UHGV virus genome: UHGV-1635749
Length of the DNA: 15,654 nt
From: a virus
Reading direction: 5' to 3' (one strand)
The notes under the pieces are model-generated. The model did not search any database. It was not told the origin of the DNA and saw only the letters and a program-made list of their open reading frames with translations. Positions 264 to 15,214 of this stretch are shown here, piece by piece. Within the stretch, counting starts at the first letter, position 1. Each line of letters starts with the position of its first letter. A program made the translations under genes and the position numbers.

Positions 264-449
264 TTACTGAGTAGACACATCTGCCGGCTTAATGAATTTT
301 TTCCCATCATATAACCAGCCGATACCGACACCTCCTTCAGCCAGTACAGCAATGCCATCCGTTGGCTTCCACTCGGATTCCCCATCCCACACGGCGATAT
401 TGACGACAACACCGTTATTTACAACCGCATAAATTTTGTTTTCATTCAT
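264..449 (-). CDS. Small hypothetical protein (61 aa from ATG at 449) in the position usually held by a tail fiber assembly gene
   Basis: ORF MNENKIYAVVNNGVVVNIAVWDGESEWKPTDGIAVLAEGGVGIGWLYDGKKFIKPADVSTQ. Its ATG (447-449) overlaps the tail fiber stop TAA (449-451) by 1 nt. The track's longer form starts at GTG 464. No family recognised. Confidence 0.45.
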   Translation of the reverse strand: MNENKIYAVVNNGVVVNIAVWDGESEWKPTDGIAVLAEGGVGIGWLYDGKKFIKPADVSTQ

Positions 450-1714
450 TACTGATACTCCCACACAATAATATAACCCTGATAACCGTCATTACCTCTG
501 GACGTTGCACTGTTTGCCGGACTGTATTTACCCGTTCCGCCTTTTCCATAAACGCCAATCATGGTCGAAACTGTGCTTTCGAGTCCGACTGCCATATCAT
601 CACCAAGACCAAAAGCTGCACATGACGGGGAGTGAGAAGCAGAGTGAAACAGAAGTCCGGCCCCTGTTGGTGGTGAAGCTTCGGCGGCACTGCCACCTGA
701 GAACGGAGGAACCTGCTGACGTTGTTGTGAGCCTTTGCCGCCCGGACAAACGAGTAATGAACCAAAACTTGTCTGACCGCCATCTCCACCAGAACCACCA
801 GGCCCCGCACCGCCCACACCACCGGCGCCAATCGTTACAGGTACAGATTCAGGAATATCCTGATAATAAAAAGCCTTTCCGTAGGCTCCAGGAGAACCAG
901 CTGCGCTGATGCCACAGTTATTTGAGGCTGTTGCTGATAAATTGCCACTGGCACCACCACCGCCAACGGCTTCCACTATAATTTTCGTTACACCGGGTGA
1001 TTTGTAGTACATCCCAGAAGTACCGAATACCTGCACTCCAAGTAAACGTCCTGAGCCGTCCCCCAGTGTCAGATACTGAAGCATATCAGGAACATTTTCT
1101 TTACTGATAAATTGACGGCCAGCGAGCGTCAGCGCTGATACTGCCGGAACATTTTTACCAGAAAAAAACAGAACCTGATCAGCGTCAGTTTGCGGCCCCA
1201 GCGTGGAAAGTTTTGTCAGCGTATCGCTGAGGGGTTGTTTGTTTTTTAGCGCTTCTATAAGACCAAGGTATGTGAGAATGTCAGCAATAGTCTTTTTCCC
1301 AATAATGTCACGGCCAACAGAAGTTAAATCAGTCTGTGATGCTGTATCAGTTCCAGTGAAATACGGGAGTTTATTTGCACCGGTTGCGAGCCCAGCCAAT
1401 GCCGTCAGCGTGGCATCAAGCGCCTGGAAATCTTTCCCGAAAGCGGTCCCCATTTTGGATATAAACCCGTTCAGGTCTCCATCATCAAGCACATCCAGCC
1501 CGCTTTTGTTGGCGGTGTACTGCGCCAACGCTGCCGCGATAAAGCTGGCTTGCCGAATAGCTTTGTTGACCTGTGCGCTGGATGCTTTACCTGCCGTAAA
1601 CCCTGAAAGCAGAGCCGGAAGTGCTTCCCAGTCAGCTTGTGAGGTGACGTTAGCGTTCGGATCAAGCGCGAAAGGTTTAAAGTTGTTTATTGCCATTAGA
1701 GTATTGTCCCCCAT
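449..1714 (-). CDS. Tail fiber protein (421 aa; alternative ATG at 1696 gives 415 aa)
   Basis: Residues about 95-153 (nt about 1256-1432), ATLTALAGLATGANKLPYFTGTDTASQTDLTSVGRDIIGKKT...YLGL, match the conserved segment I recall in P2 gpH / Mu S / P1 S-type tail fibers. Gly-rich C-terminal half. Follows the gpI-like gene as in P2 (V-W-J-I-H). The ATG at 1696 overlaps the upstream stop by 1 nt. Confidence 0.85.
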   Translation of the reverse strand: MGDNTLMAINNFKPFALDPNANVTSQADWEALPALLSGFTAGKASSAQVNKAIRQASFIAAALAQYTANKSGLDVLDDGDLNGFISKMGTAFGKDFQALDATLTALAGLATGANKLPYFTGTDTASQTDLTSVGRDIIGKKTIADILTYLGLIEALKNKQPLSDTLTKLSTLGPQTDADQVLFFSGKNVPAVSALTLAGRQFISKENVPDMLQYLTLGDGSGRLLGVQVFGTSGMYYKSPGVTKIIVEAVGGGGASGNLSATASNNCGISAAGSPGAYGKAFYYQDIPESVPVTIGAGGVGGAGPGGSGGDGGQTSFGSLLVCPGGKGSQQRQQVPPFSGGSAAEASPPTGAGLLFHSASHSPSCAAFGLGDDMAVGLESTVSTMIGVYGKGGTGKYSPANSATSRGNDGYQGYIIVWEYQ

Positions 1715-2376
1715 GCTCCAACATCGAACCCGCCGATGTATTCGTTATCCATATCAAACCCAAAGAATTTAGAGCCTTCTGACGGTGTTTCTACCGAAGG
1801 CGTTTCAACATCACCGGCCCATACGCCAGCTGATTTAACGGTGAGATAGCCATGTTTGATAGCGGCGATCAGTTCGAGAGACACATCAGAAATATCAGTT
1901 TCAGGGAAAACCCAGACCGAAATCGTCATGTCCTGGTTGTCGACGATCTGCATCCTCAGGCCTGAGCCTGCGGTAGCAGCGTCAAGGATGGGAGGCAGAG
2001 AGTCGTTCCGACCGTCCCAGTTGTTGATAGCGATTTTCGCTTTCAGAATGATGCGGTACGTCTCATCGCTTAGCGTCGTATAGCCAGAATCAGGATCATA
2101 TGGCCCTTGCCAGATGCCCTGGTCATACCCAAGCCCGTCAGTGTCCCAGCTGAAATAAACTCCGCTAATTGGCTGGCTGACTATGCGACTGCGTCCGATC
2201 CACAGACCGAGGATGTCGAGCTGTACACCGACAGCAGTATCGATATCGAAGGCTGTTACAAGCCCTGACATAGTGCTGGACACATCAATCAGCGGGCGGG
2301 TGCTCAGATCTATATGGTCAAAAAAGAGTGGCTTGGTAGCGTGGTAGTTAGTGATCAGTTCGGTGTATTTGCTCAT
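1696..2376 (-). CDS. Baseplate/tail protein, P2 gpI-like (226 aa)
   Basis: Assigned by size and synteny (between the J-like gene and the tail fiber). Its start overlaps the J-like stop (2373-2376). Confidence 0.55.
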   Translation of the reverse strand: MSKYTELITNYHATKPLFFDHIDLSTRPLIDVSSTMSGLVTAFDIDTAVGVQLDILGLWIGRSRIVSQPISGVYFSWDTDGLGYDQGIWQGPYDPDSGYTTLSDETYRIILKAKIAINNWDGRNDSLPPILDAATAGSGLRMQIVDNQDMTISVWVFPETDISDVSLELIAAIKHGYLTVKSAGVWAGDVETPSVETPSEGSKFFGFDMDNEYIGGFDVGAWGTIL

Positions 2377-3572
2377 GAGGTCACCGTGATACTGATATTC
2401 GCGGTGCTACAGGACGCTGAAGCATCATAGGCAATATCAATGTTTGATGCCGATACGCTGCCAGACGACTTACCGATCAGCAGGTCGGTAATATCGTAAT
2501 AGCGGGCATTTCCGCCGCTCACAACGCCGAGGTTTGCCGGGGAATAAATACGGCTCAGCAGAACGTCGTCGCCAATTGTTAGGCCATTTATATAATCGGC
2601 AACAGCCTGTTTAATCTGCTCGCCGATTTGAGAGGTATAGCCGGTAAAAACTTTCAGGGTAATGGCTACGAAAATTGGCACATCGGTAGAGCGCGAAAAA
2701 CTGATGACGTGAGGATTACCATAAGTATCCGGCACTGTGACAGAAGTTTTACCGTAAGTTGCGGTTCCCTGCCCTTTATTCCCCCTGATGGTCTGGGCTA
2801 TCTCGGTAACATCCCCTCCATCGACGATGGCGGAAATAGAGTGTGGCGGCAGCCCGTTGCTGTCGGTTGCCCCAGTGTCGTTCTCATATAGTTTGTGACG
2901 TGTCACGCCAGCAACATTAGCGATAGCACCGTCGACACCTTCAAACGGTGTGATCGATGGTAGCGCGACGCTTTGCCCCTGCCGAATGCGCAGCTCTGCG
3001 TCGGTTTCGGCTGGTGAACCGACAGTAGCCGCAACTGGATTGGTTACCGACACCCAACCTCGGGTCGGGGTGTTGATAGTGGTAATAGTCCCGGCCAGCG
3101 CCGCAACCGAACCGCTATTCGCACATGTGGCCGTCACCAGCACAGTACCATCAACGCCGATCGCCACACTCGCTGGAAAATTCCAGATAATGCCGTTTTT
3201 ATCCCGTGCGGAGCCATTCGTGATAGTCGTGCCTGCCGTACCGGTTAACAGAAGGTCAGCAGTAGAGTTTGTCGCTACTTTTCGCGTGATCCCGTTAATT
3301 TTCACATTGTTGCTAAGCGCTGCGGCCTGCGCTGTCGTCGGTGAAAAAGAGTTGTAGATCTCGATAGCGGTATTGTTAGCGTCATGCACCGCAAGAGCCA
3401 CCAGCGCGACCATTTGCCCATCTTTGCTGTCTGGTTCGAGGTAGGCATCACTACCGTAAATCTGCCTGAAATAGCTGGTCAGTGTATCGAGGATTGTCTG
3501 GTAATCAGGCGCACTAATCCCCTGGGCGGTTACCGTTGCCGATAGCCCCAGCGTGTCGAGGTTCAAAGCCAT
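2373..3572 (-). CDS. Baseplate J-like protein (399 aa)
   Basis: Position directly after the gpW-like gene and before the gpI-like gene. Size is compatible with Baseplate_J-family wedge proteins. Assigned by synteny only. Confidence 0.65.
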   Translation of the reverse strand: MALNLDTLGLSATVTAQGISAPDYQTILDTLTSYFRQIYGSDAYLEPDSKDGQMVALVALAVHDANNTAIEIYNSFSPTTAQAAALSNNVKINGITRKVATNSTADLLLTGTAGTTITNGSARDKNGIIWNFPASVAIGVDGTVLVTATCANSGSVAALAGTITTINTPTRGWVSVTNPVAATVGSPAETDAELRIRQGQSVALPSITPFEGVDGAIANVAGVTRHKLYENDTGATDSNGLPPHSISAIVDGGDVTEIAQTIRGNKGQGTATYGKTSVTVPDTYGNPHVISFSRSTDVPIFVAITLKVFTGYTSQIGEQIKQAVADYINGLTIGDDVLLSRIYSPANLGVVSGGNARYYDITDLLIGKSSGSVSASNIDIAYDASASCSTANISITVTS

Positions 3573-3926
3573 TTATGCCTCGCTTGTTACAGTCGTCTGG
3601 CCGTAGATTGTGTCAATGGAGGAAGTGAAAGTGACGCGGCGGCTGGTGCCGTCATAATTGGTATCGAAGGAAAGAATCGACAGAACGCCCGGTGTATCCT
3701 GTATGCGTTCGCGTATAGCCAGGATGTAGACATCTGATCGCTGCTTCCCAAGCACTGACTGAACATACGGCGTGCCTTCCGTCAGATCGAGAAACCACTG
3801 ACCGCGCCACAGCTCGAAACGGGTTTTTACGGCCTGGGCGACACATTCCGGACTGTCGATAAGGAAAGTATCGTCACCCTGGCCGAAAGTGTAATCGCCT
3901 TCAGTATCTTCGCGACGGTATCGCAT
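3573..3926 (-). CDS. Baseplate wedge protein, gpW/gp25-like (117 aa)
   Basis: About 115-aa ORF sandwiched between the spike and the J-like gene, the canonical gpW position. Its start overlaps the spike stop. Confidence 0.6.
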   Translation of the reverse strand: MRYRREDTEGDYTFGQGDDTFLIDSPECVAQAVKTRFELWRGQWFLDLTEGTPYVQSVLGKQRSDVYILAIRERIQDTPGVLSILSFDTNYDGTSRRVTFTSSIDTIYGQTTVTSEA

Positions 3927-4666
3927 TATTGCGGCCCTCCAGTAGTTCCCCCGCCTGTCTGAACTCCGCCATGTTTATGCGTGGCGACACTTATACCTGA
4001 AGCTGTCACATCATTCGTTACCGTAACCGGCCCAAGCATCGTCGCAGTACCACCACTTTCTCCCATTCCCTGAGACAGGTTACCGTTAATCGTTACGTAG
4101 CCGTTCAGCGTGATAGTCGGGGATGTGATTGTCGTTCCACCTTCAGCCGTAGCCGTAAGCTGGCCCGGCGTTTTAATGGTGATGTTATGTCCTGCAGCGA
4201 CCTCTACGAACGCCGCGCCATCATCGGTTCGCAGCTGCGCGGCGCTGGTACTGATACCGCTGATTTTCTGTGCTTGCGACTGCGGGCCAACGATGGCGAA
4301 CGCATCAGATAAGTCATGCTGGCGCGGGTCGACGGTCTCCTGAACGCCGCCGCTCTGCCACCAAAAATCGATGCAACGGTCAGCAAAAATCAGGAGGCAC
4401 TCGTCGCCTTCTTTTACCGGAAAGGTCAGCGTGCAACCGCCGCCGCGCGGGAAGATGACCGGCACATCCACCAGCGGTTTTAATTCGGTGGAGTCGTCGC
4501 CAACAATACCGCGAAGCGCCACTTCTACTGTGCAGGTTACAGCGTCAGGATCGAACGACTGAATGATGCCAGGCATCGCCACGCGCATTTGGGTAGACAC
4601 TGAATCGGCAATGGCCTGGGCGGTCTGCTGCTCGCCGCCGATCTGTGATTGAGTTGGAATTGGCAT
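3926..4666 (-). CDS. Baseplate central spike, P2 gpV-like (246 aa from ATG at 4666)
   Basis: The C-terminus ...SVATHKHGGVQTGGGTTGGPQ resembles the P2 gpV C-terminal HTHKH...GGTTGSP motif as I recall it. The ATG at 4664-4666 follows the terminator T-tract with GGGG upstream. The track's longer ORF (to 4840) would read through the terminator and the cassette's 3' end. Confidence 0.75.
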   Translation of the reverse strand: MPIPTQSQIGGEQQTAQAIADSVSTQMRVAMPGIIQSFDPDAVTCTVEVALRGIVGDDSTELKPLVDVPVIFPRGGGCTLTFPVKEGDECLLIFADRCIDFWWQSGGVQETVDPRQHDLSDAFAIVGPQSQAQKISGISTSAAQLRTDDGAAFVEVAAGHNITIKTPGQLTATAEGGTTITSPTITLNGYVTINGNLSQGMGESGGTATMLGPVTVTNDVTASGISVATHKHGGVQTGGGTTGGPQ

Positions 4667-4675
4667 AAAAACCCC

Positions 4676-4702
4676 ATAAAAAAACCCGCTCGGTGGCGGG
4701 TT
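4676..4702 (-). terminator. Rho-independent terminator closing the AT-rich cassette
   Basis: On the minus strand: AACCCGC-CACCGA-GCGGGTT (7-bp stem, 5 GC pairs) followed by UUUUUAUGGGGUUUUU. The stem overlaps the stop codon of the 145-aa ORF; the U-tract runs straight into the spike ATG. Confidence 0.55.
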
Positions 4703-5138
4703 ATAATTTTGCTTCTGGATAACATCTACAGCGACCATCAGGACAACACTTTCCCTCTCCGGGATGACCACTTTTAGGCGGCTTACTCCACGAAAATGTT
4801 TTCCCATTATTTTTAGCGCATTCTGCACACTCGTCACCATCCTCGCAGGAGCGCCAAATATAACGTTTAATACCCAAGCGAGATTGCTTTATCCTCTCTG
4901 CCTCAGAGTGACGACGGCTATTTTCGGCGAGGTGTTCAGCATAGCGCGCGTTATCCTTCTCAATTTCTTCTTTACTTCGCCGCTTCCCATTTGCTGGCTT
5001 TGATTTTTGGTAAGCAACCCGTTTATTTCGATTGTATGATTTAATAATTTCGTCTTCATTTCTACGCTTTTTAAATTTTAAATATTTAACAAATGCAAAA
5101 ACAATTACGAATAAAATAATAATATATGCAGGTTCCAT
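4701..5138 (-). CDS. Membrane-anchored, basic, Cys-rich hypothetical protein (145 aa) in the AT-rich cassette
   Basis: N-terminal hydrophobic helix AYIIILFVIVFAFVKYL followed by KFKKRR (positive-inside). Lys/Arg/Glu-rich middle. C-terminal CEDGDECAEC...GKTF...HPGEGKCCPDGRCRC putative metal-binding motif. ATG overlaps the upstream stop (TAATG at 5136-5140). Strongly AT-rich codons. Confidence 0.55.
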   Translation of the reverse strand: MEPAYIIILFVIVFAFVKYLKFKKRRNEDEIIKSYNRNKRVAYQKSKPANGKRRSKEEIEKDNARYAEHLAENSRRHSEAERIKQSRLGIKRYIWRSCEDGDECAECAKNNGKTFSWSKPPKSGHPGEGKCCPDGRCRCYPEAKL

Positions 5139-5506
5139 TATTTAACCTTTACGCAATCATAAGTTGCATATTGTCTTGGTGCATCCATGCTGGCTTGCAG
5201 CCACTGAGCATTGAGGATAGCTTTTCCGTTTCGCTTGATGTACTCAAGACCAACCCATCGCCCCGGTTGGTTTGTAGCCATACGCCAATCCATTTTTATA
5301 TTTTCGTAGTCTTCTTTTTGTTTCAGAAATGTCAATTTCTGATACTCGGGCTTTGCTCCATTTATGCGAGGAAAGCCGTCATTAGTACCACTCGTTGAGA
5401 AAGTGAAATCACCGCACTTCATATAGACTTTTCCTGCTGCATTTGCACCGGCAGCAGCTGTTAAGCAAATTAAGCCAGAAAATATTCCTGAGATTATCCT
5501 TTTCAT
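5138..5506 (-). CDS. Secreted (Sec signal peptide) hypothetical protein (122 aa) in the AT-rich cassette
   Basis: N-terminus MKRIISGIFSGLICLTAAAGANA-AGK has a basic n-region, hydrophobic core and ANA-A cleavage-type site, with no canonical lipobox. Two Cys in the mature part. ATG (5504-5506) overlaps the hub stop TAA (5506-5508). Confidence 0.6.
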   Translation of the reverse strand: MKRIISGIFSGLICLTAAAGANAAGKVYMKCGDFTFSTSGTNDGFPRINGAKPEYQKLTFLKQKEDYENIKMDWRMATNQPGRWVGLEYIKRNGKAILNAQWLQASMDAPRQYATYDCVKVK

Positions 5507-6570
5507 TAGGCACCCGTTTTCATCAAAGTCGAATCATTAATCAGGGTAGAAGCTCCACGCGCAAAACACATCAAATCCATGTACCACGCTTGACCTCTAG
5601 TGTCACCAGTATAGTCGATAGCCTTGACGATATAAACGCCATCTGTCGCAATGCTGGCAGCCTGTGACGTCGTGCCGGTCAGCACACGGTTGCCGTTCTC
5701 TTCTGTTTCGGTGATACGCCCGGGCGACTGTGCGATTTCGCTATTGCCGAGCGCGGCGCGGTACACCGAAGCCTGATCGAGCTGGATAAGACCATTAATG
5801 CGGATGTTCGGGTTTATCAGGCACCGCACGTTTACGCCGCCGCCCATCGTCTGTTGCGGCATACCGATCAGGCCAGTATCAGCATTCAACACAATGGCTT
5901 CGTGAATATATTTATCCTCCGGCACCATCTGGACATGACCATCCACCAGTTGCCATGTCGCTTTGCACTGCGCAGCAATATTATCCATCACGTTGCGGCT
6001 GGATGAGTAAATCGCGCGGCCACGAGGAAACACGGTATCAGGAAAATCGCCGGTAATGCCCTGTGTCACGCCGAACGCGTTGAAATCCTGCATCGTCGCC
6101 CGGTGCAGATCCGCAACGGTATAGCCAGCGGCAAGCGTGGTGATGGTAGTCGCGTAGAGGAACGCTTCGTGGTTACTGATGGCCTGAATCAGCACCCAGG
6201 AATCCGTAATGTTGTCCTTCCCGGTGACGGTGAAGCGAATATCACCGTCAAATATCAGGCCGTAGTTCTGACCGTTCACCTGCCCTACCTGGTCTGGTGA
6301 AATCTCCCGGGCGACACCAACCTGGCTCGCATCAACATCCGGCGCAATACCGTCATACCCGGCAATGATGCGAATTTTTGCAAACTCCTGCCCCAGTATC
6401 TTGTTCGTGGTATCGGTCGAAAGGTTGTAAATTTTCACGTTTGCCACGCGCGGCCAGCGTGTATCTGCCCACTCGATCTGGAACGTGACCTTAAAATCAG
6501 ACAGGGAAATACCCTGCCCGTTCTGGTCCAACAGCTGCAACTCAAAATGGCGCATCCAGTTAAGAGACAT
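5506..6570 (-). CDS. Putative baseplate hub protein (P2 gpD / Mu gpP position; 354 aa)
   Basis: Size and position downstream of the tape measure gene and upstream of the spike/wedge genes. AGGAG 6 nt upstream of the ATG at 6570. Assigned by synteny only. Confidence 0.5.
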   Translation of the reverse strand: MSLNWMRHFELQLLDQNGQGISLSDFKVTFQIEWADTRWPRVANVKIYNLSTDTTNKILGQEFAKIRIIAGYDGIAPDVDASQVGVAREISPDQVGQVNGQNYGLIFDGDIRFTVTGKDNITDSWVLIQAISNHEAFLYATTITTLAAGYTVADLHRATMQDFNAFGVTQGITGDFPDTVFPRGRAIYSSSRNVMDNIAAQCKATWQLVDGHVQMVPEDKYIHEAIVLNADTGLIGMPQQTMGGGVNVRCLINPNIRINGLIQLDQASVYRAALGNSEIAQSPGRITETEENGNRVLTGTTSQAASIATDGVYIVKAIDYTGDTRGQAWYMDLMCFARGASTLINDSTLMKTGA

Positions 6571-6572
6571 TT

Positions 6573-6878
6573 CTACTCCTGCACGAAAATGAGGTGGCTG
6601 TATGTGCCGAGGTTGGTTTTGGTGGGCTCGTCTGGTGCGCCCTTATCGGTCGCCACCACCAGCGCACCATCAATGCCAAGCTGTGGAAATTGTCGTAAAA
6701 GGTTCACGCCGGTCAGTAGAGGTACGCCAGAGAGAAGCGCGGCACCGCCGCTATCCATCACGTCCATAATCCAACCAGCCGCATCGCGCCAGATGATCCT
6801 GAGCGTATACGTAGTATTGCCCAGCAAAACGCGGAACTGCTGATTGTCAGGAGAAAGCGGTATTTCGTTAAACTGCAT
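6573..6878 (-). CDS. Hypothetical tail protein (101 aa)
   Basis: ATG at 6878 with GGGGGA upstream, 1 nt after the preceding stop. Lies between the tape measure and hub genes. No family recognised. Confidence 0.5.
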   Translation of the reverse strand: MQFNEIPLSPDNQQFRVLLGNTTYTLRIIWRDAAGWIMDVMDSGGAALLSGVPLLTGVNLLRQFPQLGIDGALVVATDKGAPDEPTKTNLGTYSHLIFVQE

Positions 6879-6879
6879 A

Positions 6880-7482
6880 TCATCCCCCGAATGCTGATGT
6901 AACGCTTCCGCCCAGCTGGCTCAGCAAAGATTCGTTTGGCGGTGTAGTGGATTTCGTCCCGGAATTTTGCACCGCCGATGTGCTGACGCCATCCTGCATA
7001 TCTGATTTATCAGCAACGCTAACGCTCTGCGTTTGCGACATGATCACTTCACGCAGGGTAAGCGTGCAGTTCAGCACGTTCTCGCTGGTTTTGTCCGTTG
7101 TCACCTCGATGGCTCTCACCAGCATATTGCTGTACACCCGCTTCCCGGTCACCACATCGAACGGCACCCGGGAGGACTGGAGATCCAGCAGTTGCTGATA
7201 GGTCTCTTTCGGGCTCAGTCCGGCGCTGAGGCCGATTGAAGATGTATCAATGAAGTCCAGCAACGAACCGCCCCCAGCGAAGCCGCATTCCATTGTGACT
7301 TCGCTGGGGCGCTTATACGCATGATCGGCGATGAAACCCGAGGCGCTATTCGTTGTTGGCTTCTCCACCGGGTGCTCAGTAATTTCGAGCGCATCAGAAT
7401 GCTTTTCGGAAACGACCACGCTGGGGATCAGCAGGCCAATTCGCCGTGATTGCTGGCGAAAAATCGCTGATAAAATATCCAT
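6880..7482 (-). CDS. Hypothetical tail protein directly after the tape measure gene (P2 gpU / Mu gpN position; 200 aa)
   Basis: ATG at 7482 overlaps the tape measure stop (7482-7484) by 1 nt. Position typical of a tube-initiator or distal tail protein. No motif recognised. Confidence 0.5.
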   Translation of the reverse strand: MDILSAIFRQQSRRIGLLIPSVVVSEKHSDALEITEHPVEKPTTNSASGFIADHAYKRPSEVTMECGFAGGGSLLDFIDTSSIGLSAGLSPKETYQQLLDLQSSRVPFDVVTGKRVYSNMLVRAIEVTTDKTSENVLNCTLTLREVIMSQTQSVSVADKSDMQDGVSTSAVQNSGTKSTTPPNESLLSQLGGSVTSAFGG

Positions 7483-9749
7483 TATCTCGGTCCTGCGGGG
7501 AGTTGCTGGGTTAACTGTGAATTCACACCCTTTTGACGGTCAACAGTCAAACGGGCAGCTTCGCGAGGATCGGAAACGCCGTGGATGTTAATGTTCGTTT
7601 CCTGCTGAATCACCGGGGCGCTGGTGGGCATATTGCTCATTACTTTCGGAATGTAATTGCGCGTTTCCTGCGGCATTAGCCCCATTCCATAACGTTGAAC
7701 GTTCCCGATTCCCCAGTTATATGATGCAAGTGCTTTGCTAAGGTCTCCGCCGTTCTGCCGCAATAGCTGGCTAAGGTACTTAGCGGCTGCCTGAGCTGAC
7801 TTTTCCGGGTCGAACACATCGTTACCACGCAGGCCCATGTCTCGCGCCGTGCCATCCATGAACTGGAACAGCCCCTTTGCACCCGCGCCGGACATGGCGA
7901 ACTGGTTACCACCTGACTCGGTTATCGCCACACTTTTCAATAGACCAGCTGGAAGTTGATAAAGCGACTCAAGTTTATTGAACATTGGCCCCATCCAGTC
8001 GAGCAATACTTTGCCCTGGGCTGTGGCCTGTGGACGTTTGACTGATTGCGCAAACTGGGAGGGGTCACCCGATATATTTGGAGAGATTTCAGCAGCTCCA
8101 GCCGGGGAGAAAAATAAATTACCGATTTTGGCAATCCCGTCTGAGATTTTTTCAAGATAACCATTAGCAGCCTGCTGACGGTTTTTTATTTCATCTCTTT
8201 CATGCGGGGCAATTTCATTACTACGAACATGCTGTTCCGCCCCGGGAATGTCAGGCTGAACATTATCGCCATAAACGACGCCATTGCTTTGCGCCTGACG
8301 AATAATCTTACCTGGGCCACCATGCAGCCAATCCATCCATGCGGGCCATTCTCTTACCTCGCTAACATCTTTTCGCCCAAGGTCGGTTTTGATGCCAACC
8401 GTAGCAAGAGCATCACCAATGTTCCTTTTGGTATAGTCCAAAGATGATTTAGCACTGGCTTTTATGTTTTCACGATCTGAAACCAGGTAACCAGCATACG
8501 CTCCCCATAATTTAAGCCATGGAGGTATCGGAAGACCGGATATTTTTGCGAATGCTCCCAATACTTTTGTTACCCATACCCCAGCGATGAAAGTAGCCAA
8601 AATTTCCAGCGAGTTCTGCCATCCACCAACAGAATCTTTCAGCCCCAGAAGCTTATCGCGCAGCCAGAGAATTGCCTTTTTCGCCTTTTCTATTGCAGGC
8701 TCCCACTTGGACCAGTCAATCAGGCTTTTACCGCCTTCTTTCCACGTCTGATAATCGTCATAGAGTAATCCGATCGCCAGAATCAGCGTGGTGATAATTC
8801 CAATCGGGGATTTCAGGAACGCAGAATTAAGCAGACGCCATGCGACAAGTAGAGCACCGAATATTTTCAGCAGATTTTTACTGCCATCGTCAAGATGCTT
8901 CCACCAGTCAATGACAGAGCCAGCGCCCTGTATGAGCCGCCACGCCATTCGCGTGAAGGCGTTCGCAAGCCAGATCACGCCTTTAATAACTCTGGTCAGC
9001 GTCTCTTCAATCTTCGGGAAGTTGTCGAGGATGCGCCGCCGCAGGCTGTCCAGCGAACCAGCAAGACCACCAGCGAGGTTTGAGCCGATCTTGTCCCGCA
9101 TAATGCCGAACAGCGACGTAAGCCCGCGCATGGACGTCATGAATTTATTGGACTGCACAGCCGCCTTATCAGCGTTGAACCCAGTCTTTTGCAGCATAGA
9201 CTGGTAATCGGCGGTAAAGCCATTCATGCCGCGCCGCATCGCCATCAGCGTGTTTTCATCGATGCCAAGCATCTGCGCGTATTGCTTCGCGCGGTAATAC
9301 GGCATGTTGTTGAGCTTTTGCCCAACGCCAGTAAAGATGGCCGCAGTATCACGCATCTTTCCGCTGGCATCTCGGGTCTGGACACCAAGACGGTTCAGGA
9401 AGCCTTCCGCCCCCGGATTGCTACGCATGAAACCGGCCAGCCCTTCGAGGGAGGACATGGCCGACTCGGCGCTGGCACCGGTTTGCGACGCGGCATAGCC
9501 CAGCGCTTTGATGCCCTGGACGCTGGCCCCCGTCCGTTGGGATGCCCAGTAAATTTTATCCAGACCATTCGCGATCTGGGTGGTAAATCCGACAATGCTC
9601 AGCGCTGCGCCTTCCACCACCGCGCCGACCTTCAGAACGTTTGCGGTAACGCCTTTCAGCACGGCTTCAAACTTATTAGCGCCAGCCTGATCGATATCGA
9701 ATCCCAGCGAAACAAGGAAGTCTTTAATCGTATCTGCGTTACCGCTCAT
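7482..9749 (-). CDS. Tail tape measure protein (755 aa) with a C-terminal lytic transglycosylase (SLT-like) domain
   Basis: Long ORF directly after the chaperone/frameshift pair. Hydrophobic segments at about aa 292-330 and 381-400. Residues about 585-700 contain ITESGGNQ...GAKGLFQFM...AAKYL...ASYNWG, resembling the family-1 lytic transglycosylase E-S / GLMQ / AYNAG motifs. GGAG upstream of the ATG at 9749. Confidence 0.9.
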   Translation of the reverse strand: MSGNADTIKDFLVSLGFDIDQAGANKFEAVLKGVTANVLKVGAVVEGAALSIVGFTTQIANGLDKIYWASQRTGASVQGIKALGYAASQTGASAESAMSSLEGLAGFMRSNPGAEGFLNRLGVQTRDASGKMRDTAAIFTGVGQKLNNMPYYRAKQYAQMLGIDENTLMAMRRGMNGFTADYQSMLQKTGFNADKAAVQSNKFMTSMRGLTSLFGIMRDKIGSNLAGGLAGSLDSLRRRILDNFPKIEETLTRVIKGVIWLANAFTRMAWRLIQGAGSVIDWWKHLDDGSKNLLKIFGALLVAWRLLNSAFLKSPIGIITTLILAIGLLYDDYQTWKEGGKSLIDWSKWEPAIEKAKKAILWLRDKLLGLKDSVGGWQNSLEILATFIAGVWVTKVLGAFAKISGLPIPPWLKLWGAYAGYLVSDRENIKASAKSSLDYTKRNIGDALATVGIKTDLGRKDVSEVREWPAWMDWLHGGPGKIIRQAQSNGVVYGDNVQPDIPGAEQHVRSNEIAPHERDEIKNRQQAANGYLEKISDGIAKIGNLFFSPAGAAEISPNISGDPSQFAQSVKRPQATAQGKVLLDWMGPMFNKLESLYQLPAGLLKSVAITESGGNQFAMSGAGAKGLFQFMDGTARDMGLRGNDVFDPEKSAQAAAKYLSQLLRQNGGDLSKALASYNWGIGNVQRYGMGLMPQETRNYIPKVMSNMPTSAPVIQQETNINIHGVSDPREAARLTVDRQKGVNSQLTQQLPAGPR

Positions 9750-10352
9750 TGGCCGCTCTCCATTTATCTACCCGGGCGTCGTTATCCTCGCGCATGTCGA
9801 GGTAGTCATTGAGAAGCGCGATGCGGCAAAGGTCTACCGCACCGCTGTTAAGGTCTTTCTGGTCAATATGGAAGGCAAGCGCCGGACGAAGAATAAAATC
9901 TTCACCGCCCGGCAGGCTGTTGAAGGTTATTCCGCTGGCGGGGTGGGCGTCTCGCTGGTAGGGAGTCCTTGCAAAAAATTTCCCAGCGAGTCGGCGACCA
10001 CCCGCGCCACCAGTTGCAGCATGGTAAGCAGGTCGATATCGTCAAACGCCATTTCGCCATGCTGGCAGACCGGCACCCAGCCTTTCATGTGCTCGCGTGA
10101 AACAACGGAAAGACAGGGGAACAGGATAGCGTCCACGTCGCCATCACTCAGATCGGACACAGCATTGGCAATCTTTGGCAGGATGGTAGCCATCGCGCCT
10201 TCGGTGTCTTTGCTGCTGATCTTCTCCTGAACGCTCCGGAAGTCCGAAACCATCCCGGCCAGAACCGGCAACAGCTTGCGGGACACCTTCAGCTGTTCGA
10301 AAACGCTGAGCTTTGCGGTGCGATATTTCACGCCTTTAATTTCGAATTCCAT
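9739..10352 (-). CDS. Predicted -1 frameshift fusion product of the tail chaperone (about 205 aa; P2 E+E' / lambda G-T analog)
   Basis: The -1 frame is open from the slippery site (plus 9972-9984) for 79 codons (FFARTPYQRD...DKWRAANER) and stops at TAA 9739-9741, overlapping the tape measure ATG (A-ATG-AGC-GGT-AA). Confidence 0.5.
9927..10352 (-). CDS. Tail assembly chaperone (141 aa; P2 gpE / lambda gpG analog)
   Basis: Small ORF between the tube and tape measure genes, ending 178 bp before the tape measure start. That gap is filled by an open -1 frame (see the next two features). Confidence 0.7.
   Translation of the reverse strand: MEFEIKGVKYRTAKLSVFEQLKVSRKLLPVLAGMVSDFRSVQEKISSKDTEGAMATILPKIANAVSDLSDGDVDAILFPCLSVVSREHMKGWVPVCQHGEMAFDDIDLLTMLQLVARVVADSLGNFLQGLPTSETPTPPAE
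9972..9984 (-). other. Candidate programmed -1 ribosomal frameshift site (tandem slippery heptamers)
   Basis: Minus-strand GGGAAATTTTTTG read in frame as ctG-GGA-AAT-TTT-TTG contains G_GGA_AAT and T_TTT_TTG. Both are in the X_XXY_YYZ register relative to the chaperone frame, about 14 codons before its stop. Confidence 0.5.
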
Positions 10353-10355
10353 GCG

Positions 10356-10796
10356 TTAAAACTCCCCGAGAAGCTGGTCAATCTTGCCGCAGTCGAATAC
10401 CCAGGCGACGGTTCCGCCCTCTTTAGCGTTATTGAAATCAGGCTGTTTCTGGAATGCACACGAACGCGCAGTAGAAATATCACCCGATGCCGTGTTGCGA
10501 ATGACGATCACGTTATTGCCCCAGGTGGCAGAGGACTGGCTTTGCGCGTTATACGCCAGAGACAGCTTCTTGTTCACGGGGGAGGTTTTCAGCAGCGTCA
10601 CCGTAATGGTGCCTGACTTATCGGCGTGCAGGCTGTGCATCACTTCGCCATCGGCACCGATGGTCATGGTGTTCTTGTTGCCGCCCATAGCTACGGTGAT
10701 ACCTTCCTCAGAGTTCGCAGAACCCTGACCCAGATCAATAACACCGGTCGGACCGGTGAGCGACGCGGTTACATCGAGAAAAGAATAAGTTGACAT
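10356..10796 (-). CDS. Tail tube protein (146 aa)
   Basis: Sits between the sheath and chaperone genes, the canonical tube position for contractile tails. AAGGAG upstream of the ATG at 10796. Confidence 0.7.
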   Translation of the reverse strand: MSTYSFLDVTASLTGPTGVIDLGQGSANSEEGITVAMGGNKNTMTIGADGEVMHSLHADKSGTITVTLLKTSPVNKKLSLAYNAQSQSSATWGNNVIVIRNTASGDISTARSCAFQKQPDFNNAKEGGTVAWVFDCGKIDQLLGEF

Positions 10797-10806
10797 TTAT
10801 CGCTCC

Positions 10807-11967
10807 TTAGCGAACCACGTTGATCTGCACATCGGCATAATGAACTGCGCCAGCCAGCTTACAGGCCACCTGAATTAACGGTGCTTTGCGCGCTTCCCGG
10901 TCGGCCTGCGCCTGTTCGGAGAGGGGTTGCGCATACACGTAATAGCCTTTGGTCAGCGTATCGCCGGAATTCAGTTGTCCGATAGGGCCACCATTCCACA
11001 CGCCAGCCGCTACCAGACCGTTCGTGACGGACTGATCCATGGACTGTTCAACGTTGGAAAGCAGGCGGGTCACACCGGCATCAGTCTGCGGAATTTTAGT
11101 GGTGCTGGTGTAAAGCAGGTTATAGAGGTTGGTCTGAACGTAGTTCTGCAACCAGTCGAGCCCGTGGCGCTCGTCGAAGAAGTCACCGTTCGCCATGACA
11201 CCCTGTTGCAGGATCGCCGTGTCGTTGGCGTAGTACACGAACACGTTCGCGTTCTTCGTATCTACCGCAGCCGCCTGACCTAACGTCAGCGTTTCGTAGG
11301 TTACGCCTGGCTCCTGTTTGAACTTCAGGGTAATGGTGGTATTGCTGCCGTTGAAGTTAACAGTGAACGCACGACCGAACGCAGAAGCCGCTGCATAAGG
11401 GCTACTGGTGGAATACTGAATGAAAGTGCGGGAAAACTTGCCAGCCTTTAATTTCGACGCAACATCGGTCATTGAAGTCGTGCTGATAATCCCGGCGTCA
11501 GCAGAGGTCACACCAAAGATACGGCTAAGGCTGGACGCTTCAATAAGTTTGGCGACCTCAATCACGTCATCAGCATCAAGCACATCATCGCCATCAGCAA
11601 CATCATCAGCGACAACCAGCCCATACCAGTTGGTATACTGCAGGCAGGCATTAACAGCTTGCACGATGGTTTCCACGCTTCCACCTTCGGAAGAGGTCAG
11701 CGTCTTCGCCCAGCGGCCAACATAAACCTGCGTCGGCTTCGGTGACTGGCTGAAGAAAACCTGCGCTGCTTTATATTCCGGGCTGTCGACACCGAAGTCT
11801 TCGCCAATGTCCTCAACGGACGCATAAAGGCGAATACGCTCCTGCACCGGAATGACAGTGGAAGAACCGAGGATCAGCAGTGCGCCGAAGTTACGACCAG
11901 TAGCCGCTTTCGGCGAGATGATCACATCAACGTTTACAACGTTGGATACAGGTAAGCCCTGCGTCAT
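10807..11967 (-). CDS. Tail sheath protein (386 aa)
   Basis: Largest ORF immediately upstream of tube-chaperone-tape measure. Size and position fit a contractile sheath. Family membership not verified. Confidence 0.75.
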
Positions 11968-11970
11968 AGT

Positions 11971-12534
11971 TTATTCTCCAAAAAAGGTGACTGGCGCTTC
12001 CACCAGCGATTTAATGCCGTACTCGCGCACAACCTTCCGGCGCAGGCGAACCGTCATGTCGTAGCGGCGAACCCATTGCTGGTTGATAAGCTCGGGGAAA
12101 GGGGTCAGACCGGTATAGTCGCCCAGGGATAAACCGAGCGCGTTCAGCTCAGCATTATTTTGCGGGACAGATATGCCATCGCGAAAACGGGACGCATAAG
12201 ACATACCAGCCGGGCCATAGAACGACGCCATGCACTCGAACGTTTCATGCCGCCAGAGCTGAGCGCCCTCTTCAGTCTGCCCGGTGAATGCAGGGTTGTT
12301 ATCAATGAGCAACCCGGTAACGCCAAACGCGCACCAGTTCGTTTCAACGGGTGGCAGTGGCGGCTGATTTTTCTGCCAGCGCGGACGAACCATTCCAGAC
12401 GGCAAGCCGGAAACATTGCGCATCCACTGGCTTAGCAGCCTGTCGAGCGCTTCGTCATAAGCCGGATCGCCGCTGGTGGGTGTCAGCCAGCCGCGCTCTG
12501 TGCTGGTGTTATTGCTCAATGGGAGTTCCCCCAT
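11971..12534 (-). CDS. Hypothetical neck / tail-completion region protein (187 aa from ATG at 12534; track ORF extends to a TTG at 12597)
   Basis: ORF directly upstream of the sheath gene with a 3-nt gap. Start uncertain. No motif recognised. Confidence 0.45.
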   Translation of the reverse strand: MGELPLSNNTSTERGWLTPTSGDPAYDEALDRLLSQWMRNVSGLPSGMVRPRWQKNQPPLPPVETNWCAFGVTGLLIDNNPAFTGQTEEGAQLWRHETFECMASFYGPAGMSYASRFRDGISVPQNNAELNALGLSLGDYTGLTPFPELINQQWVRRYDMTVRLRRKVVREYGIKSLVEAPVTFFGE

Positions 12535-12898
12535 CAAACGGCAGTAATTCACAATGAGCCTGGACGAAGCCAGCACCGTAAGCCGTGTACGGGTCAACGA
12601 ATGTCACACGATAATCACTGTTCTGGTACGTCACAATATCGGCGTCACGGCCAGTCTGCCCCTGCGTCAGCCGCTCAGTTGTCACGATGAGAATCGCGCC
12701 ACTGATAACCTGGCCGGACTGCATACGTCGGTTTTCCAGGGAGCGGTCAACAGTAACATCCCCGGCAAACTGCTTTTTAACTTCACTGTCGCTGCCGATC
12801 CCGTCCTCGTCCACCGTTTGCGCGCGACGCGTTACCCACAGGTTGAAGTCGCAAAAATCGGGGTCAAAAAGCACGTCTGTTACATCAAGAGTCGGCAT
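12509..12898 (-). CDS. Hypothetical head-tail joining region protein (129 aa)
   Basis: ATG at 12898. Overlaps the upstream gene by 14 nt and the downstream gene by about 26 nt. Assigned by size and position only. Confidence 0.45.
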   Translation of the reverse strand: MPTLDVTDVLFDPDFCDFNLWVTRRAQTVDEDGIGSDSEVKKQFAGDVTVDRSLENRRMQSGQVISGAILIVTTERLTQGQTGRDADIVTYQNSDYRVTFVDPYTAYGAGFVQAHCELLPFDGGTPIEQ

Positions 12899-14272: not shown

Positions 14273-15214
14273 TCAGATACCGTCCACGTAGGACAGGGTT
14301 TCTTTGTACACTGGCTCAACCGCACCGAGCTTGCCGTAGTAGGTCGCAATCTGATACAGACCGCGATACTGGACAGGAACGCTCTGCAACGGCACCAGCG
14401 GATAGCGCACGTATTTCTTGTCGTTGGTGTAGGCGATCATACGGTCTTTACCGCCAACCCCACGCCCTTTCAGCCATTTGACCGCTTTGATTTCAAGCGG
14501 AACGCCGTTCTGGTGGAAAGCGATAGTGTTCACAGCCAGATAGGTCAGCAGTGACTGGTTACCCGCTTCGGAAACCTTACGGCTCGCCAGCAGTGAATAC
14601 TGCTCTGGCGGAATGCGCAGATCAGAAGGCACGATGGAATAACCGGATGCTGCCCAGGCATTAGACAGAATGCTGTTCACGCTATCGAGGATCTCGTCGT
14701 TGGTTGAGTTCGCCCAGGTCTTCGGCGCGTTGTTCAGCGTCACACCGACGAGGTTTGCCAGACCTTTCAGGCCGAGCGCATCATCGCCGATGTAAACCTG
14801 CTCGTCGTTGTCCATCTGCCATTTGAGCTGCATCCCGTCGTACTTCTGGGTATCAATCGGGCGGCCTACCTGCTGAGCTGCTGCCAGCTCTACAACGGTC
14901 CAGCCCAGTTCCATACCCCAGAGGTTCAGTGGATTGCCGTCTTTGCTGATATCCACGTTCACGCCAGCAATAGCGGTGGAGTCTTTGCCTACCCAGTTTT
15001 TACCATTCGGATTTGCGCCAGTACCAGCAGCGCCAAAGCTGGTGTTAGTCCAGCTGGAAATGTCATCTGCGATAGACACGTCTTCACGCAGCTGAATATC
15101 GCGGGTCCAGGTGTAACCCACCAGCGGCAGGTTCAGCGTCTGGTCGAGTCGCTCCAGCTCCCCGATGAGAAAGGCACCAGAGCTATCAACGGTTGCCTGA
15201 TCAAAAGTAATCAT
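14273..15214 (-). CDS. Putative major capsid protein (313 aa)
   Basis: About 310-aa ORF following a small structural-type ORF and preceding the neck genes, with a GC hairpin right after its stop. Assigned by size and position only; no motif recognised. Confidence 0.5.
   Translation of the reverse strand: MITFDQATVDSSGAFLIGELERLDQTLNLPLVGYTWTRDIQLREDVSIADDISSWTNTSFGAAGTGANPNGKNWVGKDSTAIAGVNVDISKDGNPLNLWGMELGWTVVELAAAQQVGRPIDTQKYDGMQLKWQMDNDEQVYIGDDALGLKGLANLVGVTLNNAPKTWANSTNDEILDSVNSILSNAWAASGYSIVPSDLRIPPEQYSLLASRKVSEAGNQSLLTYLAVNTIAFHQNGVPLEIKAVKWLKGRGVGGKDRMIAYTNDKKYVRYPLVPLQSVPVQYRGLYQIATYYGKLGAVEPVYKETLSYVDGI

Follow-up and report, generated by a model that had tools for sequence, protein, structure and literature searches.

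We analysed the UHGV virus genome UHGV-1635749, a stretch of 15,654 nucleotides read as one strand from 5' to 3' and called the window below, and focused on the junction between its baseplate hub and central spike genes. Comparison with related prophages and phages shows that this junction is a real accessory-gene site, which extends from the last 15 codons of the hub gene to a terminator just before the ribosome-binding site of the spike gene. In the window this site, hereafter the slot, holds two small genes. ORF-A, at the first position, encodes an exported small eight-stranded beta-barrel protein, and ORF-B, at the second position, encodes a predicted membrane-anchored protein that carries part of the MuF domain of phage head proteins. 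We tentatively propose that ORF-A and ORF-B act as a pair at the cell envelope against incoming or competing phages, in a two-layer form of superinfection exclusion housed in a terminator-capped slot; we regard this reading as quite possible, with a chance somewhat short of even.

An accessory-gene slot between the hub and spike genes

An initial annotation had described the two ORFs at 4701-5506 as AT-rich by comparison with their flanks, and the computed values bear this out. The G+C content (GC) of positions 4703-5550 is 0.407, against 0.534 ± 0.024 (minimum 0.461) for the other non-overlapping windows of 848 nt, and the lowest-GC 848-nt window of the whole sequence starts at 4701. GC at third codon positions (GC3) is 0.30 in ORF-B and 0.37 in ORF-A; in the 18 other genes it lies at 0.55-0.69, except for the tail fibre gene (0.41). 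The low-GC tract also reaches into the final 45 nt of the hub gene (5506-5550, GC 0.40). The two ORFs are joined to the operon by overlapping stop and start codons, TAATG, at 5504-5508 (hub/ORF-A) and 5136-5140 (ORF-A/ORF-B), exactly as the initial annotation had noted.

To map the limits of the slot, positions 3500-7000 were compared with nine E. coli relatives by local BLAST. Towards the spike, homology stops at 4689-4706; towards the hub, it starts at 5551-5555. Between these limits only 5139-5385, the C-terminal two-thirds of ORF-A, matches the relatives, at 73-82% identity (L003-L009), and positions 5386-5550 have no nucleotide match in the E. coli relatives compared. At the protein level, the hubs of relatives are identical as far as the motif MCFARG and diverge across their last ~15 residues. 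The related prophages have flanks that are 89-99% identical, with 4703-5550 replaced by other genes, and this swapping of content between conserved flanks was seen in 53 E. coli genomes and in other genera. No meaningful direct or inverted repeats that could represent insertion scars flank the slot.

The two positions of the slot behave differently: position 1, ORF-A, is almost constant among relatives, and position 2 (4703-5138) is freely exchanged. The genes found at position 2 in relatives include a 53-aa (amino acid) ORF; an opposite-strand DUF4236 protein with a C-terminal transmembrane (TM) helix, in 11 of 30 among the E. coli records listed; a Phd/Doc toxin-antitoxin pair; a 185-aa TM protein together with a 70-aa protein; and, in E. 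coli E89 (L009 1483-1833), an opposite-strand 116-aa protein that reaches the Pfam cut-off of EACC1 (Effector Associated Constant Component 1) at 23.6 bits. In named phages the position is taken by a 138-aa signal-anchor protein (SEN34_21), a 188-aa HExxH protein or a 170-aa protein. All cargos sampled at position 2 are AT-rich, with a measured GC of 0.38-0.41. They are typical conflict or accessory genes. PADLOC returned nothing for ORF-A, ORF-B or eight alternative cargos, save a noise-level SngB match for the E. coli E89 protein.

These comparisons modify the view of the initial annotation that a two-gene cassette was inserted between hub and spike. The junction is an accessory-gene site, as that view requires, but ORF-A is near-constant and only the position of ORF-B is exchanged; accordingly, when related prophages are compared for presence of the cassette, ORF-B is absent from most of them and ORF-A is found in nearly all. 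The idea of two genes dropped in as a unit is thus not supported. An ORF-A-like gene and a relative of ORF-B stand together in the slot at about 17 loci, the hubs of which share only 52-65% identity with that of the window. ORF-B homologues are AT-rich in all diverged relatives in which this was measured (GC3 0.24-0.35). Because the pair occupies the same slot beside diverged hubs and ORF-B homologues are still AT-rich, it is long established in the lineage. A recent foreign insertion, in which both genes arrived jointly from a low-GC donor and have not yet adjusted their composition, would account for the sharp drop in GC confined to 4703-5550 and for the occurrence of the exact cassette in only 1 of 5,426 complete E. 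coli genomes (97% identity). Given the distribution of the pair just described, the family-wide occurrence of ORF-A and the lack of flanking repeats or other scars, we assign this explanation a very small chance, and the synteny data already contradict it.

The slot is closed by an intrinsic terminator. Its hairpin has 7 bp, 5 of them G-C, starts inside the stop codon of ORF-B and is followed by UUUUUUUAUGGGGUUUUUAUG, the final AUG of which is the spike start; the GGGG ribosome-binding site and the ATG at 4666 come straight after the U-run. In all 14 of the 14 slot variants compared, a G+C-rich hairpin of 7-14 bp (folding free energy, dG, -10.7 to -20.3) with six or seven U precedes the ribosome-binding site of the spike gene. 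The stems vary by paired changes, from CCCGC/GCGGG in the window to CCAGC/GCUGG (L003, L006), CCCACC/GGUGGG (L007), CCCAC/GUGGG (Klebsiella phage Mulock) and CCUGCC/GGCGGG (vB_EcoM-683R1). Because these changes keep complementarity, they are good evidence for a selected RNA hairpin. The initial annotation was right that a terminator is present, but not that it belongs to the two genes: every relative has one there, and it is a property of the slot and not of the ORF-A/ORF-B cargo. The hairpin lies only 17 nt from the spike start, and therefore the downstream baseplate genes must be transcribed through it. By analogy with lambda, late transcription modified by Q would read through the terminator, for which the Q antiterminator of the closest prophage is an obvious means, and other transcription of the slot would end there, so that the downstream baseplate genes would be insulated from it.

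An exported barrel protein and a membrane-anchored mini-MuF protein

The initial annotation had recognised in the slot a signal-peptide protein and a membrane-anchored, basic, Cys-rich protein, neither of them a recognisable baseplate component, and this description was upheld throughout. In profile and structure searches neither ORF-A nor ORF-B matched a structural family or a solved baseplate structure, and the flanking hub and spike do match baseplate families.

The N-terminus of ORF-A is a typical Sec signal (MKR, a hydrophobic core and cleavage between ANA and A). ORF-A matches phrog_3443, a family with no function assigned, at 3e-42, and no Pfam or NCBIfam model matched it; it has neither a lipobox nor the C-terminus of an outer-membrane protein. 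A word-indexed search found homologues in 104 clusters, every one from Enterobacterales. The homologues have 111-125 aa. In their alignment the signal peptides are mutually unrelated, and the mature domain is well conserved, above all the C-terminal 80 aa, with an invariant Cys pair, C31/C118. Across E. coli, Salmonella, Klebsiella, Serratia, Pantoea and Yersinia, almost every relative has such a homologue after its hub gene, and ORF-A-like DNA occurs in 68 of the 5,426 complete E. coli genomes. The only exception among the relatives examined is E. coli AR_0119 (L007 1291-2406), in which an unrelated 371-aa lipoprotein stands in place of ORF-A. In E. coli SY3626 (L006 1792-2700) the ORF-A barrel is the C-terminal domain of a lipoprotein ORF of ~300 aa; this ORF is open, although RefSeq marks it as an incomplete pseudogene. 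All homologues carry a Sec signal, or in L006 a lipoprotein signal. Two homologues listed in GenBank with 77 aa, in Salmonella phage SEN34 (SEN34_20, L027 2427-2770) and in a Klebsiella phage (L028 2468-2809), were mis-started at an internal Met; the full frames begin upstream, with a non-ATG start in SEN34_20, and encode signal peptides.

The composition of ORF-A homologues in diverged relatives is intermediate (GC3 0.43-0.55), and their pairwise identities track those of the adjacent hub (rho 0.57). Since nearly all relatives carry ORF-A after the hub gene, we regard it as a conserved exported protein of the phage family and not as cargo, and its predicted secretion argues against a conventional virion component. 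We also considered ORF-A as a Spackle-like inhibitor of the SLT muramidase domain of the tape measure. This candidate was rejected: relatives from Salmonella (L010) and E. coli (L012) and Klebsiella phage Mulock (L019) keep the ORF-A/ORF-B pair though their tape measures have no SLT domain, and the correlation between ORF-A and SLT (rho 0.70) is based on only 10 pairs. As for a lysozyme or transglycosylase inhibitor of the MliC/PliC or Ivy kind, neither a specific fold or sequence match nor dependence on a muralytic partner was found for ORF-A.

ORF-B is a basic protein (pI 9.6, 34 K+R) with seven Cys. Its TM helix, residues 4-19, is preceded by MEP (-1) and followed by KYLKFKKRRNEDEIIK (7 K/R), and continues into KYLKFKKRR. 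On the positive-inside rule the C-terminal domain would be cytoplasmic, and we predict an N-out, C-in topology in which the linker and the Cys4 MuF core face the cytoplasm. A cytoplasmic core fits the predicted zinc site and the many relatives that have no export signal at all. The AlphaFold2 model of ORF-B has a pLDDT of 93.6, and a structure search with it found no counterpart in the PDB.

The relationship of ORF-B to MuF is partial. It scores 25.1 bits against Pfam Phage_Mu_F (cut-off 29.6) over profile positions 34-109 of 112, that is, the C-terminal half; 6e-10 against phrog_324 (head morphogenesis); and 7e-4 against TIGR01641, with 19.9 bits against a cut-off of 39.65. A profile search started from ORF-B reaches canonical MuF proteins at ~1e-12, and ORF-B is 41% identical over 59 aa to the head MuF of the closest relative prophage. 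Tested against the canonical core motif, W..D.RVR..H...G..F.W...P..GHPG...CRC, ORF-B keeps most of it, with RxxH replaced by CxxC and an additional Cys-containing insert; the core that ORF-B has in common with MuF and SPP1 gp7 (PF04233) reads Y.W....D.......G..F.W...P..GHPG....CRC. In contrast to PF04233 and TIGR01641 proteins, ORF-B is half their length, scores below the cut-offs, carries the CxxC and the Cys insert together with a membrane anchor, and is encoded in a baseplate operon. On these grounds ORF-B, though related to MuF, should not be classed among the MuF head proteins.

The close family of ORF-B comprises only 8 clusters, with 38-98% identity. Invariant in it are R87, G89, C104, C107, G112, K113, F115, W117, P121, G124, P126, G127, C132, C137, R138 and C139, and W95 and D100 are also invariant or near-invariant across the alignments A1 and A3. 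ORF-B-like DNA occurs in 4 of the 5,426 complete E. coli genomes, and a genome scan with the narrower alignment A4 found only four loci. Most relatives lack ORF-B and nevertheless make phage, and it is therefore dispensable. Its pairwise identities correlate poorly with those of hub, ORF-A and spike (rho 0.16-0.30), while ORF-A tracks the hub, and so ORF-B is exchanged between phages in the manner of other cargo. That ORF-B co-evolves with a protein of the tail tip was rejected on the same correlations; a tracking of hub divergence was seen only relative to the window.

The proteins that share this reduced core form a large group, which we call mini-MuF. When 1.84 billion representatives were searched with the profile, 3,382 proteins matched at E <=1e-3 and 205 at E <=1e-10, in more than 3,000 clusters at 50% identity. 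Among the best 150 matches, 110 are short (median 142 aa) and have CxxC in place of RxxH, and canonical MuF proteins with RxxH account for 21 (median 278 aa); many other mini-MuF relatives pass the Phage_Mu_F cut-off, at 35-50 bits. The short proteins have in common a basic PRRxRRSxEEIxAD-like linker and an N-terminus that is either a TM helix or a short amphipathic segment of the MxWLxxLF type. A third arrangement is seen in P0149, a metagenomic protein of 332 aa that is a natural fusion of DUF4236 (68 bits), TM2 (35 bits) and a mini-MuF core (42.5 bits), so that membrane targeting would be served by a TM helix, an amphipathic helix or DUF4236-TM2. Because of this fusion, and because DUF4236 is the commonest alternative cargo of the slot among the E. 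coli records listed, the sequences suggest that DUF4236 and mini-MuF may act in one pathway.

The TM-type mini-MuF genes with recoverable context all lie between an ORF-A-like gene and the spike gene, with ORFs usually 0-4 nt apart. These contexts come from Salmonella, three lineages of E. coli, Pantoea stewartii (98% identical), P. latae, Hafnia, Klebsiella phage Mulock, eight IMG/VR contigs and one metagenome contig. P. stewartii ATCC 8199 (L015) and E. coli 2021CK-01361 (L001) have near-identical tail modules with the same cassette at 98% protein identity, which implies recent cross-genus spread of the phage or a labelling issue.

More distant mini-MuF genes also stand in accessory positions of prophages and of satellite-like elements. 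The amphipathic type is found at the end of a tail-tip module and adjoins an integrase gene, in satellite-like elements of 13-14 kb (L020/L021 1-7420; L024/L025). In these elements the mini-MuF and two or three small ORFs accompany genes for integrase, AlpA, a primase or DnaB-type helicase, tail chaperone, tape measure (SLT-bearing in L025), Dit, hub and a gp138-type spike. The stretches recovered showed no gene for capsid, terminase, sheath or tube; the elements may be satellites that encode a tail tip of their own. The amphipathic type is also paired with DUF2513, with the ORFs 1-4 nt apart, in accessory regions of two prophages, one of them Mu-like (L022 6604-7399; L023 6601-7393), and one of these pairs is followed by a gene with a SocA/Panacea domain. 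We found no description of the short mini-MuF family in the searchable literature, which likewise did not describe these proteins under STY1065/STY2022, DUF4236 or PF04233.

Proposed superinfection exclusion and competing explanations

In the proposed exclusion mechanism, neither protein would be part of the virion. ORF-A would be secreted by Sec and would bind something in the periplasm. ORF-B would be inserted into the inner membrane, and at its inner face the MuF core would engage DNA, a pilot protein or the portal partner that canonical MuF binds. A MuF core tethered in this way could intercept the incoming genome end or its pilot proteins, or serve as a decoy that draws off a competing phage's portal or procapsid partners. 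Counted in favour of this reading are the swapped content of the slot, its conflict-type cargos, the low GC, the terminator, the export and anchor signals, the dispensability of ORF-B, the Q antiterminator, separate lysis cassette and portal-adjacent canonical MuF of the closest prophage, the accessory positions of distant mini-MuF genes, the DUF4236-TM2-mini-MuF fusion and the precedent of HK97 gp15.

That precedent is an inner-membrane exclusion protein, the product of a moron in the tail operon of HK97, with a specificity set by the tail region of the excluded phage (PMC3594210). Gene 15 and ORF-B are alike in encoding a small single-pass inner-membrane protein, in their place in a lambdoid tail operon, in odd composition, in a terminator and in being missing from relatives (PMC3594210). 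They differ in that the proteins have no sequence similarity, gp15 being YebO-like and ORF-B a MuF core, and in that gp15, which has a promoter of its own, is expressed from the prophage, whereas for ORF-A/ORF-B, which are coupled to the hub and include a conserved exported partner, no promoter was found. A moron in the sense of Juhala and Hendrix is an extra gene between conserved neighbours with deviant composition, its own terminator and its own promoter, with expression from the repressed prophage (PMC3594210). ORF-B shows three of these four features, namely absence from relatives, deviant composition and a terminator; ORF-A, which nearly all relatives carry, departs from the definition on the first of them. 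As to the promoter, only a sigma-70-like site with 9 of 12 matches was seen in hub codons, which is within chance and not conserved.

The division of labour between two compartments has a parallel in phage T4. Its Imm and Sp (Spackle) proteins, one at the inner membrane and one in the periplasm, jointly act at the envelope against incoming phage; their genes are early and unlinked, and Spackle is helical and inhibits the gp5 lysozyme. ORF-B and ORF-A resemble them in pairing one inner-membrane with one periplasmic protein. The sequences, however, are unrelated, and ORF-A is a beta-barrel that is present irrespective of the SLT domain of the tape measure.

Several observations weigh against exclusion. 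No promoter of its own was found for the ORF-A/ORF-B pair: in a consensus scan the count of sigma-70-like sites did not exceed the expectation from shuffled sequences, and the candidate hexamers at 5608-5636 lie in conserved hub codons, yet decay in diverged relatives. Translation of both ORFs is coupled to that of the hub gene, which points to expression late, in the lytic cycle. Plaque-forming phages (SEN34, Mulock) retain ORF-A, which may therefore serve the phage's own cycle. For neither ORF did PADLOC, Pfam, NCBIfam or PHROGs give a match to a described family of exclusion or defence proteins, and the low correlations of ORF-B give no sign of a co-evolving target. Finally, the topology, the zinc binding and the binding partners of ORF-B are all predictions.

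The lack of a promoter and the coupling to the hub would fit equally well an accessory role late in the cycle, which we consider somewhat unlikely. On this account ORF-A and ORF-B are produced only when the tail genes are expressed, to the benefit of the producing phage; they might block injection by progeny or superinfecting particles into cells that are already infected or undergoing lysis, or organise a step of assembly or release that is associated with the membrane. The TAATG coupling from hub to ORF-A to ORF-B, with a tight spacing kept in relatives, agrees with such a role, as do the failure to find a convincing promoter and the conservation of ORF-A in nearly all relatives, plaque-forming phages included. 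It is harder to reconcile with the conserved, covarying terminator, which has no obvious use if the slot is read only by Q-modified polymerase, with the ability of most relatives to make phage without ORF-B, and with the opposite-strand cargo at the same position, which must have its own promoter.

The MuF ancestry of ORF-B bears on a further alternative. Canonical MuF/gp7 is a binder of the portal and of DNA that is packaged in a few copies and helps infection to start (PMC6316719, PMC5576092), and MuF domains also carry effectors into the capsid (PMC5512222, PMC5576092). ORF-B could similarly be delivered by the virion, either attached via its MuF core to the portal or taken into the tail along with the tape measure, and then injected, so that its helix enters the inner membrane of the recipient; there it would pilot DNA entry or counter a defence. 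In addition to the packaging and effector transport known for MuF (PMC6316719, PMC5576092, PMC5512222), the position of the gene in the tail-tip module here, and at the end of that module in satellite-like elements, lends itself to this idea. We nevertheless hold it to be improbable. ORF-B has only the C-terminal half of the MuF domain, and its hydrophobic N-terminal helix followed by KFKKRR should direct it to the membrane of the producer. Moreover, 85-87% of muf genes lie directly downstream of a portal gene (PMC5576092), whereas ORF-B is encoded between hub and spike, in a phage whose closest prophage already has a canonical MuF next to the portal gene; and ORF-B is dispensable in most relatives.

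The initial annotation had compared the slot with the lysogenic-conversion and exclusion genes lom and cor of lambdoid phages. The likeness holds for function and kind, a moron in a tail operon, but not for position or homology. Lambda lom and bor and the cor genes of phi80 and N15 are, like the slot genes, envelope-directed accessory genes in or beside lambdoid tail genes; unlike them, they are located downstream of J or of fibre genes, and the sequences show no homology. Lom is an outer-membrane barrel, and Bor and Cor are lipoproteins or associated with the outer membrane, whereas ORF-A has neither a lipobox nor the C-terminus of an outer-membrane protein. We think it highly doubtful that the pair serves host-directed lysogenic conversion of the lom/bor kind, altering the stress tolerance, adhesion or resistance to host factors of the lysogen instead of its phage sensitivity. 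The envelope location, the AT-rich composition and the hosts, which are gut and plant Enterobacterales, are compatible with it, but a cytoplasm-facing domain that derives from a phage head protein has no evident tie to host-environment traits, the alternative cargos are of toxin-antitoxin or conflict type, and no match of ORF-A or ORF-B to a virulence family was found. A spanin pair of the Rz/Rz1 type was also considered and rejected: ORF-A has no lipobox, the C-terminus of ORF-B is predicted to be cytoplasmic, and the closest prophage has a separate lysis cassette.

Accessory and defence hotspots of P2 and P4 combine a fixed position with diverse, swappable content. The slot shares with P2/P4-type hotspots and with Tai loci (PMC11364771) a fixed site, conserved flanks, diverse content including toxin-antitoxin genes and a family-wide distribution. 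It differs from them in lying inside the baseplate block, in its conserved first gene and terminator, and in that no PADLOC defence model rose above noise. Defences that interfere with assembly in phage moron loci offer a precedent in principle (PMC11364771). An accessory hotspot, or a moron in a tail operon, is thus of an already known kind; new, as far as we searched, are a hotspot with a conserved exported gene and a covarying terminator, and a short, membrane-associated C4 MuF-core family that includes a DUF4236 fusion. A broader reading, which we regard as speculative and unlikely, is that mini-MuFs are widespread small interference factors of phages and satellites that mimic the portal- or DNA-binding MuF core at the membrane and block the genome entry or head assembly of rivals; in Brunovirus-like phages they would form a swappable exclusion module with the periplasmic barrel.

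Genomic setting and significance of the slot

All long ORFs of the window lie on the minus strand and constitute the late structural block of a myovirus (Table 1). The closest DNA matches are prophages in 53 of the 5,426 complete E. coli genomes and Citrobacter phage Omnitron; relatives at the protein level include Salmonella phage SEN34 (genus Brunovirus), Klebsiella phage Mulock, Hafnia phage yong1 and several induced E. coli and Klebsiella phages. The nearest prophage, in E. coli 2021CK-01361, is 96.6% identical across 3900-6600. This lambdoid prophage has replication and nin genes and a repressor of the LexA family, and its order runs from a Q-family antiterminator through holin, lysozyme and lysis protein to terminase, portal, MuF and the structural genes; the canonical MuF minor head protein (202 aa, 65.8 bits) adjoins the portal gene. 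The source phage is a SEN34/Brunovirus-like lambdoid temperate myophage.

The hub scores 25.4 bits against Pfam E217_GP41, slightly below the cut-off of 27. The spike start at 4666 matches the RefSeq start in E. coli 2021CK-01361. A 304-aa ORF at 3926-4840 was considered as the spike gene and discarded; it is an upstream run-on through the terminator into ORF-B, and both homology and RefSeq place the start at 4666. The mean pairwise identity between relatives is 0.52-0.63 for plug, hub and spike, far below the 0.78-0.81 of W and tube, with J intermediate (0.69), and the sheath of the relatives compared is 70-96% identical to that of the window. The tail-tip module looks like a unit that evolves or is exchanged separately. 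No Rfam family was found in the window.

Table 1. Features of the slot and of the surrounding structural genes in the window
Feature	Positions	Strand	Basis or remark
Tail fibre	449-1714	-	PHROGs
DUF2612 wedge	1696-2376	-	Pfam
Baseplate J	2373-3572	-	Pfam
Sheath initiator / W-like	3573-3926	-	PHROGs
Central spike, 246 aa, downstream slot boundary	3926-4666	-	gp138-type N-domain 1.9e-41 (140 bits) and GpV apex 6e-9
Intrinsic terminator closing the slot	4678-4702	-	hairpin 4702..4683 and U-run, dG -11.1
ORF-B, 145 aa, exchangeable second slot position	4701-5138	-	sub-threshold Phage_Mu_F match
ORF-B MuF-core domain, residues 87-142, C104-x2-C107 ... C137-x-C139	4713-4880	-	alignments
ORF-B basic helical linker, residues 20-86, conserved RRSKEEIE motif	4881-5081	-	alignments A1, A3; helix 56-87 in model
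ORF-B transmembrane helix, residues 4-19	5082-5129	-	Kyte-Doolittle maximum 2.9
ORF-A, 122 aa, conserved first occupant	5138-5506	-	follows hub gene
ORF-A barrel-domain segment common to relatives	5139-5385	-	73-82% nucleotide identity to L003-L009
ORF-A signal peptide, residues 1-24, predicted cleavage after ANA	5435-5506	-	read from sequence
Last 15 hub codons, AT-rich, variable, part of exchanged segment	5506-5550	-	homology with relatives resumes only at 5551-5555
Baseplate hub, 354 aa, upstream slot boundary	5506-6570	-	phrog_196 2e-82
Candidate promoter, unconfirmed, weak sigma-70-like match TTTATA-17-TATACT	5608-5636	-	9/12 matches, within hub coding sequence
Plug	6573-6878	-	Pam3 gp18-like
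Dit-like protein	6880-7482	-	Pfam
Tape measure	7482-9749	-	SLT lytic transglycosylase domain at C-terminus, residues 589-689, 86.5 bits
Tail chaperone	9927-10352	-	Pfam
Tube	10356-10796	-	Pfam
Sheath	10807-11967	-	DUF3383 / E217 gp31-like
Neck terminator	11971-12597	-	Pfam
Major capsid protein	14273-15214	-	Pfam Major_capside

The operons for tail and baseplate are generally regarded as purely structural. The slot described here is a fixed, terminator-insulated docking site within such an operon, at which a whole family of temperate phages of enterobacteria exchanges accessory genes, toxin-antitoxin pairs among them. It gives a defined site at which new functions in phage conflict can be sought in E. 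coli, Salmonella, Klebsiella, Serratia and Pantoea. ORF-B ties this site to the large family of short MuF-core proteins. If interference by mimicry of head or pilot proteins proves true, it would represent a new principle of exclusion and would assign a role to part of MuF, a domain that is still poorly understood.

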